Of a stretch of DNA of 64,000 nucleotides, positions 55,896 to 64,000 are shown piece after piece. The stretch lies in the NCBI GenBank assembly GCA_004022145.1, contig RCNU01000001.1; one strand, written 5' to 3'. Both the position numbers and the translations under genes were made by a program. Under the pieces are notes generated by a model. That model was given only the letters and a program-made list of their open reading frames with translations, searched no databases and was not told the DNA's origin. Within the stretch, counting starts at the first letter, position 1. Each line of letters starts with the position of its first letter. The DNA comes from Paecilomyces variotii (lineage: Eukaryota).

Positions 55896-56858
55896 CGTCA
55901 AGGACAGGACTTCAGTAAGCATGTCATTTTCAATGCAAAAACGACTACAAAACAAACATCAAAGCACATCTCATAGAAATTCAAAATATAGAGGAAGATT
56001 AGTTTTTTATTGCATGTAGTAATCATTTCTAAACCTACTTACAGCAAGAAAGACATTTACAGACCATGTTTATTTGATGTGGTGTTCCTCCTCAGAATAA
56101 CATGGACCGGTGCCCCCTCTCACACATCACACGCGCTTCACAAATGACGCCGAGACATATCTACGGCTCTATCAGATGAAGCCTCACGCGCAATGATGTC
56201 GTTGTTTATATGAGGTCCTGTACTACCACAGCTAGATTAGTTCAATAGAAAAATGAGTAGGAAAAAGCCTTCATATTGACCCTTTTCACGGACATCTATC
56301 TACCTTGTCTACCTACATACCTTAACTCTCTGAGAACAATAACATCAGACGAATATCGTGACCTCGCTTAGAGCTGATGTTACATTGAAAGAAAGTAACA
56401 GAACCCGCCACACTGTTTTTGAAAAGAATCTCTCTGGGTCTCTCACTTCGGTGTTTCGTCTTCTCACACTCTCTGGCACCACCCACGGAGGATATCCTCA
56501 AGACAAGTCCTGTTCTGTTCCCTTTGGACAGTCAGCTGGGTGAGAGACCTTTAGTTGGGCCTTTCTGCAGAGTTGCCTAGTCTCTGAAGGTATCTTCCAA
56601 TATTGCCGCCCACTTTGATCCTTGAGGCTGTCCTCATTCACTCTTTTCGTCAACCCCGACTCTGCTGTCTTTCCCTCCTGAGACACGTTATTAGACTGGA
56701 CAGTAGTCTGAAACACGCTCTTTGCAGTTCTTGAGCAAGAATTCAGTATCAGACTCTGCTGAGAAAGAGTTTCTGTACTTCTATCAGGTCTTGTAAGTAA
56801 CAGGATACCTCTTCGATGGAGTGAGCTTACAACGACATTCAGCTTGACATCCGCCAAT

Positions 56859-58625
56859 ATGACTCGTCAGGAGATCGTTGCCGTCTTCAAGTTGAAGAGA
56901 AACAAGAAAGAGATCGCCCGTCTCCGTGAAGACTCTGACCTTGGAGAGAGAAAGATATCTCTCGGCCAGATGATTGCCGAAGCGTTCCCAGACGAGGAAT
57001 CACTCTTCAGGGACGATGAAGAGGATATGCAGGACTGGTTCGGGTTCGAGAATGAACCAGCTGAACAAGCTAACCCAGCTGTTGAGGACCCTGAAGCCAA
57101 CGAGTCGGCTGAGTCGACGCCAGCCGTGACTGAAGAAGAACAGTCTTCTTCCCAGGCCGCGATGAAGCCCGATGAGGACGGTGATTTCGAGAAGCCGAAG
57201 GAGACCAATATTGTTCACCCCTGGAACATTGTTGATTATCACCTCTATCTGACCGCCATCGAAAATGGCGCAGGTGAGCATATCAAACGTCATTGTATGT
57301 ATTTGTTCGACGGGAGCTGGTGCCGTCCTTTTCTCTACCGCAACTTCTTCGAGAAAGAAGGAGAGGAAGGAGACGCGTTCTCCCCTGACAAGGTTGGCCC
57401 AGCGCCGCAACTCTTGTTCGGGATTCTTCCCATCGCAGAACGAGGCCCCTACTTCAACGGTATGAAATATCTGCTGGGTTTCGACTGGAACGCAAAGAAG
57501 ATCTTCGCTCGCCGCTTCACTTGGATCCCAGATGAGATTGAGGACATATGGACTGTTTGGGAAGAGGGCCAGATCGTCTACCAATTTTCGATCCCAGAGC
57601 TCCGGCGTATGATGAGGGCTAGTATCAGCAACGGAGACGGGAGCATAGATGTCACATGCTTAGGCTCAAGCGACCATTGCCTGGTCAAGGGTGTCGGCGA
57701 CGGACCTGGATTGGAGATGGTTATTGTCATACAGTGCTGCCAGTGGGTCACTGACCTGGCGGAGGTCTTCTGGAAGAACGAAGACGAGATCCGTTGCGTG
57801 AAGGAGGAACTCATTGGTATCGCACACGAATGGCAGCTTGTCCTCCAGCGCGCTTCGCACAGGGCATGGTTCGCTTTGGACGATGGTATGCCAAAAGATC
57901 CAGATGCCAGGAAGTTCTTGATGGATGAAGTTATTAGCGACCTGTGTAATTTCAATCAGTCAAAGATGCTTGAAAACGTGTACGACAACTCATGGCATGC
58001 CCCATCCCAGGACACCTGCGAGAGGATCCGCCAGCGCTGCTGGGACCAATACCGGGAGGAAGCTATGGAGCGTGTTGGGAAGAAATACGAGCGCGTCTTC
58101 AGTCCGACGTACAGTGCAATTTCAACAATGTCACCGGGGAAGACACTTGGGAACATAATAGGTCGTGCTGGAAGCCTTGCAGGGCCGGCAGCTTCCTTCC
58201 TGGACATTCCCAGCACTCCTCCTCCGGCTGAACCTTTCTGGATGCCTCCGTCTCCATCCTCTGACTCGTCTGAGGAGATCGTCTCTCCAGCCACAGGAAA
58301 ATATGATAGTCAATATGACGGGATCAGACTATGTGCTATGCTGAGTGTCCTGACCGGCTTCATCGAGCAGAACCCAGCGTTGGACATCCCTCACTATCGC
58401 CGCAGACTTGGAGCCTTGATGGATTATATGGGCCTCTCTCTGGTGAACCGCGAGCCTCCCAGGGAAGAACGTCGTTCTTTGGCTCAACAGAAGCGCGATT
58501 CCGGATTCGGATACAATGAGGAGGAATGGGGAGAAGAGTTGAAAGCGATGGGAGACACCGAAGAGAGCGACGAGAACTTTGTCGCCCGCGTTCCCGCCCT
58601 CCTTCCCAGTCCCATTCTCGACTGA
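56859..58625 (+). CDS. Intronless hypothetical (orphan) protein, 588 aa
   Basis: 1767-nt uninterrupted ORF from ATG 56859 with coding-like composition and pyrimidine-rich UTR-like flanks. No family recognised. Confidence 0.8.
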   Translation: MTRQEIVAVFKLKRNKKEIARLREDSDLGERKISLGQMIAEAFPDEESLFRDDEEDMQDWFGFENEPAEQANPAVEDPEANESAESTPAVTEEEQSSSQAAMKPDEDGDFEKPKETNIVHPWNIVDYHLYLTAIENGAGEHIKRHCMYLFDGSWCRPFLYRNFFEKEGEEGDAFSPDKVGPAPQLLFGILPIAERGPYFNGMKYLLGFDWNAKKIFARRFTWIPDEIEDIWTVWEEGQIVYQFSIPELRRMMRASISNGDGSIDVTCLGSSDHCLVKGVGDGPGLEMVIVIQCCQWVTDLAEVFWKNEDEIRCVKEELIGIAHEWQLVLQRASHRAWFALDDGMPKDPDARKFLMDEVISDLCNFNQSKMLENVYDNSWHAPSQDTCERIRQRCWDQYREEAMERVGKKYERVFSPTYSAISTMSPGKTLGNIIGRAGSLAGPAASFLDIPSTPPPAEPFWMPPSPSSDSSEEIVSPATGKYDSQYDGIRLCAMLSVLTGFIEQNPALDIPHYRRRLGALMDYMGLSLVNREPPREERRSLAQQKRDSGFGYNEEEWGEELKAMGDTEESDENFVARVPALLPSPILD

Positions 58626-60504
58626 ATCAAGGAGGAATCGAACAATCTTCAATAATACCTTTGTCCATCTTCACTCATCTCTCGAATTTTTGTCGAAGTC
58701 CAGTTTCAATTTCCTCGTGATTTCATGCCTTTGTACCGGTGTCCATCTCTTTTTACAACCTTTCTGCATGTTCTCCAGTTTCCCCTTCATTTCACCTCTT
58801 TATGTCTAAAAAACAACACCTTTCTCCATTCCCTTTAGCATTGCAGTCACTAACCCCCTTTTCATCACTTCTGTGTCTTGTATTGGGTCACTATTTTCTC
58901 AACAGACCACTCATCAGGTAATATGTCAGGCAGCTGGGCTTGTCGCCAACCCTTTTCTTTCGACTTTTGTGTCTGAATACCCTCCCAGAACGTGTTTTTG
59001 AGCTTTCACTTCAAGCATTCAGTTTGTCTCGTTCTGTTTGGTGTACTCTCAAGCGTGTCACTGGTGACGGCTGAGAACATGATTTGTCTATCGAGTATTT
59101 GGTTTCTTTTCTTTCCCTGTCTTCTCTCCTTCCCCGAAATGGTTCTCTTTCACATGGATGGTCATACCGTTGCTTTCGGTGGCATGAAGATAACTGTATC
59201 CGTACTGCATTCTGCACGTATGGGGTCCCCCTTCTTCGTGCATGAAGTGAGCGGCAGACCGACCAGTGTACTGTACCTAATGGGAGATGAAGAGCACGAG
59301 TTACAGAACAATGAAAATCTCAAAACATTGCTAGTAGTATCTTGATTAGAGTGCTCAAGCGTCTGACACGGATAACCACTGTCCTGATCCCAAACAGGCA
59401 GATAGTTTGTAGCTCTAAGCACAAGAATCGTACCTCTCACGCCACAAATTCTTGACTCGCGAATTGCAGCCCGTGGAAAAATCTGATGGTGATCTTATCT
59501 TAGCGCTCCGGTGAAATACCAAGTAGTAGCTGAGTGTACAGCTGTGTCAAATATCAGGCCGGCGGGAACCTAGATAGCAAATGTGTGCGGCGCCCGAGTC
59601 CAGCTATATGCACGTGTGCGATAAGATCTAACACCAGATGCATAATGGAAGGTAATAATATACTGGCGGTCATCGATGATGCTTAAAAATGCTCCATACC
59701 TGTCATTTTGTTTATGATCTGTCCCGTGATGTCCAGTAGATGTTTGGATATGCACATCATACACCCTAGCAGAAACGGATCATATTTCGTGTCGGGCATA
59801 GGTTGGTATAATAAATCAAAATATAGGAAATACTAGGAGTTACAATAATCCATAATCTTAGGTTGCACTGAGCTCCTAGGATAAGTCTCTAGAACTAGAA
59901 AAGATTAAATATGGGATAGTTTATGTTTGACTTTATACTCATTTAAGTTGGCCTGCAATCCCACTCTAAAGGCGTCGCGCATAGACCTAATAGTTACTTA
60001 TGCTTATACTATACAAAATGATGAAAAGCTCTTGAGAAATTAGATCAGACCATGCAATATCTTTACTAGCTTCTTGCTGCATAATGAAGCCCATAAATAT
60101 ATGACCCCCTAACATCATATCTGGAGAGATAGAAAACTTTAATAACTATCTTAATAGTACCTCAACTAGCTAATAATAATAATAATACCAGTAGTGAACT
60201 AAACCAATAACACAGCTATTCCTTAATGGTTATTCCTCAACCTCTGGGTACATCCCCCATTTATAGTTTCAAAATCTTCCACAGCTGGCCTTACTATCAG
60301 TGACGTAGGTTCGCTACCATCGCAGAAGCCTACAACGCGAGTAAGAATTAGGTCATCCCTCATAGAATCAGTTACCAGGTAGAAACAACTTGCTACTGAA
60401 TCTCACTCTCATTTCCATCTGTCGCTCTTGTCTCTGCGTCCACTTTGTCAGGGTCGATAGTGATTGATACACTAAGTGCTGGTTTACTCCAAGAAACAAT
60501 CAGA

Positions 60505-60901
60505 ATGGAATCGTAAGTATACACTTGAGTCGACTATTTGAGGACAGAACGCCCTAATCATGAACTAGTCTCACGGCTCAAACCACTCCTAAAGCTGATC
60601 GTGCCTCCAACACGAAAGATGGCGCTCAACCCAACTCATCAGACCAGCCTGCAAGTTGCGTCCCAGGCCAAGGGCAGAGAGAATCATAAGAAGCTAACGA
60701 AATGTATAGGAAACTCCTTCAACAACATCGCTGTCTCCGCCTCACCGCTCCTCCATTCCAGACTGGCACGGTAATTATGATCGCAGACCTTCATGGGACA
60801 TAAACTAAATGATATTCACCGCAGGGGACCCCCGCGCCTTCAAATGTGTTTTGTGTCAGAATTGGCATACGGCCCGGTGTCCTTGGCTCCGAAATTATTA
60901 G
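60505..60901 (+). CDS. Putative 75-aa microprotein with C-terminal C-x2-C-x3-H-x3-C zinc-knuckle-like motif, 4 exons, one GC-AG intron
   Basis: Exons 60505-60512, 60569-60650, 60710-60770 and 60825-60901 total 228 nt in frame. Introns are 56, 59 and 54 nt with donors GTAAGT, GCAAGT and GTAATT. Product ends ...DWHGDPRAFKCVLCQNWHTARCPWLRNY*. Confidence 0.55.
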
Positions 60902-61554
60902 CTTGGCTTATGGATAATACGTTTGCTTTCCTTTCTGAAGGAGTCGTGGGTATGTGGGAATCTTTGGTAGATTGGTGTGGCTTTCGAGTAATCAGCAGCT
61001 TAATGATAAGAATTTGGACCTAGTAAGGAGAAGAAATAGTATTTAGATTCCAGGCTTGTAACCGCACATCAGAATCATGCACTGGAGACGTCTCTCCGTA
61101 GAATTACTTGTAAGGACTCTACGTTACAAAACACTACTAGACTGGACAACACGAGCGTAACGGCACATGAAATGACACCTTCATAAAACAGTGCAGTGAG
61201 GAACTGATATAGAGTATATACTTAAGGTTAGAATGACGAGCTTCTCCGGTTCATGTCTCATCTTCTGTACTGCTCTTGTGAGGTCGACCAGAGGCCCTAT
61301 CTTCATGACAACCACATAGTGGTCGATCACAGTTGAAGTATGGTCCTCGGTAAAGGACCAGGAGGGAATTCGTGCGCTTGCCCTCGACTAAGTTGCCAAT
61401 TTTGCTGTATTACCACAGCAGCATAACGAAACTGAATTTATAGACCGACTAGAGCAGGATCCATTTTCTGGCTCATTAGCGGTCAAAATCAGTACCCGGC
61501 TTTCGCTAGCCGCTAGCCTATCAAAGAGATCTAGCACAGGGCTGAGTGGGAGAC

Positions 61555-61810
61555 TGTTGATAAATTGATATGGTTTGTTAAAGCGCTTATATTAGGCTTA
61601 AAATATTAAAGAAAAGATTAGACGCTAAGCTAGCTAAATAGCTAAAAGGAGAAAATCAATGCTTACTGGAGTTACTTAGTAAACTCTTTATAATGCTTAG
61701 TATAGGTCAAATACATATATTAATATTAGTGAGCATCAAGTCGCTTAGCATTAGCTCAGTGAGTGCTCGGCATTGCCCACCAAGCGAGTTCATCTGTAGT
61801 TAGATGGACT
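61555..61810 (+). pseudogene. AT-rich, TpA-rich relic consistent with RIP-mutated coding or transposon sequence
   Basis: Sharp rise in AT and TpA content. One frame reads YIRLKILKKRLDAKLAK*LKGENQCLLELLSKLFIMLSIGQ with a single TAG that could derive from CAG. Confidence 0.35.
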
Positions 61811-63030
61811 CTTATGAAAGCAGCACGGAACAGGAGAGGAAGCCGGGAGGTCGTTGCATATATTTGCTACATTGGATGGATATGCCACGTAGATACTCTG
61901 TTGGTGATAGCGGGATTCCCTGGTCCATGGGAGGTCGGTGACCTGTGCGTATCATGTGCAGTAGCATACCACACATCACATCTAGTATTATGTATCCAGT
62001 TACCCACATCGAGTTCATCCAGTCTATCAAACTGGAGAAAATTTTCTGTGCGTTTGCAGTTCCGCCTTGGCGAGACAACTGATAATCACACAGTGGGGAG
62101 CGTGTCCGCCGCCAAGTAAGGTAGCGGATGCCTTCCGGGTCCCAGTAGATTGTACAGTAGTTATCAGATACTACTAGTTAAACTTTGAAGCTGTGCCCCC
62201 AACGAATTTAGCGAACGTGGTGGAGACGAGCTGAATATGTTTGAGGGAGCGACACTAATCATAGAAAGAGGCTTTTGAGAAGAAGAAAAACCGTGAGATG
62301 GACAAATTACCTAGTTAACTAGTAGATTGTCATCAAAGATTCACATGACGGCAAGTTCCTTCTGCTGCTCACGAGGCAGACTGGTCAACTCAACGGATAG
62401 ATAATAATGATTCAGCCACGAGCATCCAGCACTGTGTTTTCGTGGATGCGGATGAGGGCGTCTTACGCAACTTCGAAGGCTTCGTTAACTAACTAGTATT
62501 TCTTTCAGCTGCGCATCACATGATTCATATCAGATCTGAAAATGCTGTGGGGCCGATCAGCTGAGGCCCCACCCCGCTAGCGCCGCAAGTGGCTCCCGGC
62601 GTGGCTTGCGAGTGGCGGTGCTGAGGCTGGGCGGTTCCCCCCGCGCGAAACGGGCTGTGGCTGATTGGCCCGTATTATCCAGAGGTAGGGCTTGGCATCG
62701 TCACTTCCTCAAGCCGGTGCTTCGAGGCATTCCTTACTAGTGCTGCCCGCGCGGGTCTTGACGGCCCTGCCATTATTTCCCCCTGCGTCGCCTGCTGCTG
62801 CTCCCTTTCTTTCTTTCTTTCTTTCTTTCCTCTCCGGATCGTTCTTTTCCCTCATCGCCTTTTGCTCACTTTTCTTGTCACTCTCTTACAATTCCATTGT
62901 CCCACTTTCCTTTCAGACCTGAACCGACCCCTCGTCGCGGCACCGGGAGATCTTTGCGCGCTGAGTGGTTCTGGTACCATTGCGTTGCCATAACGCCCAT
63001 TTGCGCACCTGGAAGAGGTCCCCTTAGATC

Positions 63031-64000
63031 ATGGCGGATTACGAGTCGCAGCAGGCAGGCCAGAATGGCTATGGTACATACGAGAAGGCAGTAAATGGTG
63101 CGTTTGGAACGTGTTGCTCGCGAGGGCGGAACCACTGACACTCCTCCTTCTATCCAGGGAACGGTACCCCTTTCGACCTCCAGAACGCGGGAGTCAAAAG
63201 TACCGCAGTGTCTCCGGCAGAGCTAGCATCTGGATATCAAGCTGGGGGCACCGGTTCTCAGCTGGATGTTATCTGCGGCCCTCTGATCAACTATAAATAC
63301 ATGGAGTTGGATCCCGGCTCTCCCGTCTGGCAGGGAAGTGTTCTGATCGTTACTACTCCAACTCACCAGCAGCAGCCGCATTTACACTTGCGCCAGGCGG
63401 GTCCTGTGTCGCATGCGAGCAATGGTGCGCAGAATGGTGGCACGTCGGGCCGCGAGGGAACCATTGATGGTATCAAGCTCTACGAGGACCCGGAAAAGAC
63501 GTTCTGGCGGTTTTCTCTCACGGTCCCGATTGAACAATTCGAAGCTCGTTGGGAGTACACTATCCCTGGCTTCAAATATGCCACTGGAGACCCAGTAAAA
63601 GCGCCCTGGACCTTTGTGGTTCCCGCAGCCGACCAATCCATGCGCCTCATGTTCCATTCCTGCAATGGTTTCTCGGTCGGAACGGACACGGAGAGCTGGG
63701 CTGGTCCGGCGCTCTGGAACGACGTCCTGAGGATCCACGAAAAGCGCCCTTTCCACGTCATGATCGGAGGCGGTGACCAAATCTACAATGATGGCATCAG
63801 AGTCGACGGTCCCCTCAAGCAGTGGACAGATATCACGAACCCCCTGACGAGAAGGCACCATGATTTCAGCGAGCACATGCGGTCCGAGTGTGACAAATAT
63901 TACTACAAAAATTACGTGAGGTGGTATACCTCTGAGCCGTTCAAGACCGCCAATGGACAGATTCCTCAGATCAACATCTGGGATGATCACGATATCATTG
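63031..64000 (+). CDS. PhoD-like metallophosphatase (fungal type), 5' part; continues off the window
   Basis: Exon 63031-63097 and intron 63098-63157, then open to the end: ICGPLINY, WQGSVLIV, FWRF, MRLMFHSCNGFS.G, LWNDVLR.H...PFHVMIGGGDQIYND and IWDDHDII. Full gene not in the ORF track. Confidence 0.9.

Follow-up and report, generated by a model that had tools for sequence, protein, structure and literature searches.

The window, by which we mean the whole 64,000-nucleotide stretch of Paecilomyces variotii DNA that was analysed, contains a small gene of four exons in a 4.5-kb gap between two plus-strand genes, and its transcription and splicing are shown by one contig of one sequencing run. 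We judge it probable that this is a genuine microgene of the Eurotiales, with a 75-codon frame that would encode a disordered leader and a conserved tail predicted to bind one metal ion and a partner. The gene is already annotated as hypothetical and its intron type is familiar; what is new is modest, namely a small, conserved family of microproteins whose Cys2-His-Cys tail is unusually compact and for which the searches made here found no Pfam model, structure or literature. Otherwise the finding is an ordinary one. Short multi-intron genes are those that gene finders most often miss, and a reading of the raw sequence recovered this one exactly, GC-AG intron included, in agreement with RNA data and with independent annotations.

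Gene model, transcript and neighbourhood

The frame opens at the ATG at 60505, which stands in a good context (cagaATGG, with A at -3 and G at +4), and the coding segments listed in Table 1 join to 228 nt that read in frame through 75 residues to a TAG stop. This join reproduces exactly the peptide that the sequence-only reading had predicted from four segments, and the splice joints found in RNA agree with it. The same reading spoke of an 8-nt first exon, which is right for the coding part; exon 1 as a whole is at least 95 nt long, since the contig described below starts at 60418. Its 5’ untranslated part, 60418..60504, is without any ATG. Intron 3 contains an in-frame TAA at 60806, and the contig has no further intron in the 3’ untranslated region as far as 61021.

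Table 1. Features of the microgene and of the genes on either side, in window coordinates
Feature	Position	Strand	Basis or remark
620-residue uninterrupted ORF with acidic stretches	56763-58625	+	upstream of the microgene; contigs of runs X1, X2 and X3 cover it
5’ UTR part of exon 1	60418..60504	+	minimum extent; X2 contig begins at 60418 after adapter letters
Coding 3’ end of exon 1, 8 nt including the start codon	60505..60512	+	joint 60512/60569 in X2
Intron 1, 56 nt, GTAAGT...TAG, CCTAAT near 3’ end	60513..60568	+	GT..AG joint skipping 56 in X2
Exon 2, 82 nt, polar Ser/Thr/Pro-rich region	60569..60650	+	sequence and X2 contig
Intron 2, 59 nt, GC-AG type, GCAAGT...TAG, branch-like GCTAAC upstream	60651..60709	+	GC..AG joint in X2
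Exon 3, 61 nt	60710..60770	+	sequence and X2 contig
Intron 3, 54 nt, GTAATT...CAG, phase 1	60771..60824	+	GT..AG joint in X2
Exon 4 coding part and TAG stop; encodes the conserved C-terminal block	60825..60901	+	sequence and X2 contig
C-x2-C-x3-H-x3-C motif	60845..60880	+	invariant in 7 of 7 aligned members
3’ UTR	60902..61021	+	minimum extent (at least 120 nt); X2 contig reaches 61021
PhoD-like phosphatase	from 63139	+	downstream of the microgene

For the region 60200-61300, 24 runs were listed; the stretch or part of it was present in 19 rows, 7 of which are on record as RNA. Contigs of runs X1, X2, X3 and X5, which come from three studies, were compared with the window between 58000 and 63400. 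A single X2 contig of 457 letters (depth 31.9, 0 differing letters) spans 60418-61021 and carries all three junctions that had been predicted: 60512/60569 (GT..AG), 60650/60710 (GC..AG) and a third that appears as 60769/60824 ‘cut +1’, which is 60770/60825 (GT..AG). The proposed GC-AG intron, with its GC donor and AG acceptor, is thus seen to be removed, the contig skipping 59 nt at that joint. The label ‘RNA?’ that X2 bears is a guess in the record. The run behaves as RNA or cDNA, because it also contains the joint at 63096/63157, which comes from an intron in the PhoD-like gene nearby and is found in the declared RNA run X5 as well, and a CT..AC joint at 62190/62311.

The other runs have less to say about the microgene. 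X3, a metatranscriptome run, has a 900-letter contig from another strain (9 differing letters) with adapter letters at both ends; it covers 59772-60629, including the AT-rich region upstream, and continues into exon 2 with intron 1 unspliced. This may reflect a retained intron, carry-over of genomic DNA, or another transcript or one initiated upstream. X1 and X5 have no contig over 60418-60900, where absence of a contig does not mean silence.

A GC-AG intron is uncommon yet ordinary, and is of note for gene finding rather than for biology. According to PMC7072748, 98.7% of the splice-site pairs of fungi are GT-AG, and among the non-canonical classes GC-AG is the major one. Intron 2 resembles the U2-type members of that class: its donor GCAAGT departs from a strong fungal donor at position 2 only, and it has a CTAAC branch-like site, a length of 59 nt and a product from which it has been removed in RNA. 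Nothing in it sets it apart from them.

Around the microgene, the 620-residue ORF upstream matches no Pfam family above threshold, the only row being Fas1-AflB-like_hel at E 0.1 and 12 bits, where the cut-off is 25. The remaining long ORFs that were scanned look like housekeeping genes (an alpha/beta hydrolase, a patatin, Foie-gras/Gryzun trafficking proteins, RXT2 and PXA-RGS), and there was no sign of a biosynthetic cluster among the window ORFs scanned. Directly upstream of the microgene, the stretch 59600-60400 is AT-rich, with a GC content of 0.33-0.38 against 0.50 for the window, and may be promoter or degenerate repeat DNA.

A second transcript lies on the minus strand at 61554-62605. 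Runs X1, X3 and X5 each have contigs that begin at 61554, and in X5 a loose end of 23 T letters before that position corresponds to a poly(A) tail on the minus strand; the CT..AC joint of X2 mentioned above is a 120-nt GT..AG intron when read on this strand. In the spliced form the longest ORF that begins with ATG has 68 codons and is preceded by several short ORFs, and between strains the transcript carries indels of 7, 3, 8 and 4 bases. It looks like a spliced, polyadenylated non-coding RNA that is convergent with the microgene.

The homologue family and its C-terminal block

We searched 60710-60898, read through the retained intron with X at the stop, against proteins of 34-111 residues, and obtained a sole match, the 75-residue NCBI entry ‘hypothetical protein DTO212C5_560 [Paecilomyces variotii]’ (here P0001). 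It differs from the window peptide at two positions, T9A and P24S, both in exon 2; the last 51 residues are identical, and the residues across all three junctions, that of intron 2 among them, are the same. The same four-segment model, with its GC-AG junction, is therefore already in public annotation. The sequence-only reading had called the gene hidden and unannotated, and this description has to be dropped, given that entry and the relatives annotated in six Aspergillus species. The 41-residue frame of exon 2 found no match at E ≤10 among proteins of 73-2000 aa, which is a limit of that search, since P0001 exists.

A full HMMER scan with the 30-residue ORF 60809-60898 against 1.84 billion representatives returned 5 proteins at E ≤0.001, two of which we take as real. 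These are P0001, the near-identical counterpart, and P0003, a protein of 95 aa whose match, at 71% identity and E 4.4e-5, runs to its last residue; in a BLASTP comparison of the two, 18 of 26 residues were identical. The remaining three were rejected as relatives. P0004 has CCCH fingers and P0005 C2H2 fingers. In P0002 (1971 aa) the ligand pattern is absent from the 37 stretches that matched, which belong to a unit of about 53 residues repeated in tandem; the repetition raised the summed score to E 1.5e-22. This predicted protein probably stems from the translation of a tandem repeat in DNA, and shows that repeats can head searches with a short query.

A profile search with P0001 and P0003 yielded 16 candidates, of which 8 belong to the family; their species are P. 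variotii, A. luchuensis, A. tubingensis (two), A. vadensis, A. niger, A. eucalypticola and A. neoniger. All 8 are named hypothetical or uncharacterised, and the locus tags of five Aspergillus members (that of A. niger not being among them) and of the P. variotii protein occur in no main text of the literature searched, supplements being outside its scope. These hosts include moulds of food fermentation and food spoilage, and they are genetically tractable. Family members are 75-99 aa long with a polar, poorly conserved N-terminal part that is predicted to be disordered, a description that the window protein fits. The Aspergillus proteins P0003 and P0006-P0010 (85-99 aa) share the small size, the polar N-terminal part and the terminal block; they differ from P0001 in being 10-24 residues longer, and their N-terminal parts are 25-33% identical to it in the alignment.

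The block, AFKCxLCxxWHTxRCPWLxNY, lies at the extreme C-terminus in 7 of the 8 proteins, and the last exon in the window is identical to P0001 over it. The exception is P0011, which diverges from the others just past the His encoded before intron 3 in the window and has a different C-terminus; to judge from the sequence, it is probably a gene model that has retained the last intron. A further candidate came from a metagenome scan with 7 rows (P0011 dropped), which matched 103 stretches; a single one, the locus L001, passed tblastn. Its positions 2-832 hold a long, prokaryote-like open frame of 276 residues that matched the back-translated pattern KC[AV]LC[RQH][QN]W with a C-x3-C-x2-C followed by ‘QNW’. 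We take the C-x3-C-x2-C to be a radical-SAM activase signature; the locus is a chance match and not a relative.

Within the block, all four Cys/His positions are kept in the seven aligned members, always at the spacing C-x2-C-x3-H-x3-C. The sequence-only reading had named loss of this frame in relatives as grounds for giving the gene up, and the frame is kept in every family member other than P0011. The ligand positions are C57, C60, H64 and C68 in the numbering of that reading and C58, C61, H65 and C69 in the alignment, and the residues invariant in all seven are A, F, K, C, L, C, W, H, T, R, C, P, W, L, N and Y. Among the six Aspergillus sequences, 58 of 78 columns vary in the N-terminal part and 2 of 21 in the block (Fisher p 8e-8); between P0001 and each Aspergillus member, 16 of the 21 block residues are identical. 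A frozen block behind a variable N-terminal part argues for a translated protein. Such a pattern, in which the leader is free to change while the tail is frozen and has the same final residue in both genera, is the one expected of a translated, functional C-terminal module.

The motif is rare in the window, with one occurrence (60845-60880) in 127,996 six-frame residues. AlphaFold2, run on the 8-row alignment, gave pLDDT values of 48-53 for residues 1-40 and of about 82, which is moderately confident, for residues 51-70; in the model (mean pLDDT 60.8, pTM 0.29) residues 56-57 and 64-65 form two short strands and residues 70-73 a short helix. Foldseek against the PDB gave no match better than E 1.9, and its weak, non-significant rows, useful as a lead only, were mostly zinc fingers (U1-C, C2H2 and PRDM9), those to C2H2 fingers having E 5.7 or worse. 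VIA-align found no Z ≥2 among 48,161 chains. In the ESM Atlas, the best score for residues 48-75 was 0.80, within the range of shuffled proteins; one row there, again a lead only, has zf-CCHC on 26% of its members. Searches of PDB sequences, with a single sequence or a profile, returned nothing relevant.

Readings of the frame and of its tail

On the strength of this conservation we think it very likely that the gene is protein-coding. The opposing view is that it gives rise to a spliced non-coding RNA or is a young, non-functional ORF, its 75-codon frame yielding no working protein and having merely been annotated by gene predictors. Length alone is weak evidence of coding: in dinucleotide shuffles of the spliced contig, the first ATG opened an ORF of at least 75 codons in 260 of 5000 cases (about 0.05), and some ATG did so in 692 of 5000. 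Codon usage is intermediate, with a per-codon log-likelihood ratio of 0.057; real coding windows have a mean of 0.14, with 12% lower than the ORF, and nearby intergenic ones a mean of 0.014, with 17% higher. The third codon position is low in GC, at 0.49, where the window's long ORFs have 0.55. The frame matches no known family, its predicted proteins were found, among the proteins searched, in P. variotii and black Aspergilli only, and the minus-strand transcript nearby, if non-coding as it looks, means that such RNAs exist at the locus. Set against these points is conservation of a protein-like kind, in which none of the Cys, His, Trp, Phe or Pro residues of the block changes in any of the 7 sequences, which come from two genera, and the variable columns are concentrated before the block. 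The ORF also begins at the earliest ATG in the spliced contig, at offset 87 or window position 60505, and has its stop in the last exon. We therefore regard a transcript with no working protein as improbable. It is less probable still, and in our view very unlikely, that the tail is switched by a GT donor 4 bases downstream of the GC donor, as the sequence-only reading had suggested, in a regulated swap of the Cys-His block for another C-terminus. The join from that donor, after 60654, does open the other frame that had been quoted, which stays open for about 117 codons, so the alternative frame exists; the X2 contig, however, contains the joint of the GC donor only, contigs being prone to drop rare variants so that minor isoforms are not visible in them. 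Moreover, no homologue with the alternative tail was found, the block being present in all family members but the one that looks like a retained last intron, and the TGCG that follows the GT makes a poor donor.

If the protein is made, we propose the following course for its expression and action. A plus-strand mRNA would be freed of three short U2-type introns, one of them of the GC-AG type, and its first AUG would open the 75-codon frame, which would then be translated. The product would consist of some 50 disordered, fast-evolving, polar residues followed by the conserved 21-residue block, and the block may fold as a minimal hairpin-plus-turn module, holding one metal ion, most likely Zn(II), through its Cys-Cys-His-Cys residues and presenting to a protein or nucleic-acid partner the side chains of its conserved aromatic and basic residues (F, K, W, R, W and Y). 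Zinc binding by the tail is plausible from its sequence, and, granted that the protein is made, we lean slightly towards such a minimal site for one Zn(II) that displays side chains to a partner. The block might instead be something other than a structural zinc site: a redox dithiol/disulfide, a set of Cu(I) or Fe-S ligands, or the core of a processed or modified peptide. Such functions would suit a spacing that fits no described zinc-knuckle family and occurs, as C-x2-C-x3-H-x3-C, in no paper of the literature searched, and a variable leader before an invariant C-terminal 21-mer resembles, in form, the leader-core precursors of peptides. But on reading the sequence we saw neither a signal peptide nor, ahead of the block, a dibasic site for processing, and the neighbours (the PhoD-like phosphatase, the patatin-like lipase, the alpha/beta hydrolase, the trafficking proteins and the unassigned 620-residue ORF) are unlike those of a biosynthetic cluster. 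The weak Foldseek rows, for what they are worth as a lead, also point towards zinc fingers. Taking these together, we consider a role other than a structural zinc site unlikely, though not as remote as a transcript with no working protein, and we continue with the zinc-binding module as the preferred reading. More tentatively, and with rather more doubt than conviction, we suggest that the tail is an undescribed minimal metal-binding module, shorter than the catalogued zinc knuckles, and that it may define a lineage-restricted microprotein family of Eurotiales moulds, namely Paecilomyces and the black Aspergilli, with a disordered leader and a 21-residue zinc-dependent recognition tail.

Comparison with known zinc modules

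The tail had been described as a zinc knuckle. Its spacing is as that description gave it, C-x2-C-x3-H-x3-C, but membership of the family did not hold up: the tail falls outside the classical CCHC zinc-knuckle family, PF00098. Classical knuckles, which are of the retroviral type, are spaced C-x2-C-x4-H-x4-C. The tail shares with them the order Cys-Cys-His-Cys in a very short stretch, the C-x2-C at the start, and aromatic and basic residues around the ligands. It differs in its spacing, with x2/x3/x3 where the family has x2/x4/x4, and in that it occurs once, at the very C-terminal end of a microprotein. Nor is there a profile match: none of the seven members matched any Pfam family at E ≤10, zf-CCHC included, and for the window protein 0 families were found at E ≤1.

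C2H2 fingers, which have the form C-x2-4-C-x12-H-x3-5-H and a beta-beta-alpha fold, are the other natural comparison. The tail lacks both the 12-residue spacer and the H-x3-H helix of these fingers, its third and fourth ligands following after 3 and 3 residues, its last ligand is a Cys rather than a His, and it has no Pfam match to them. Its opening, AFKC-x2-C-x2 followed by an aromatic residue (W), nevertheless resembles their hairpin, which explains the weak match to the multi-finger protein P0005. The tail combines a C2H2-like opening with the ligand order of a CCHC knuckle, at an x3/x3 spacing that suits neither; if it does bind zinc, it would be among the shortest such modules.
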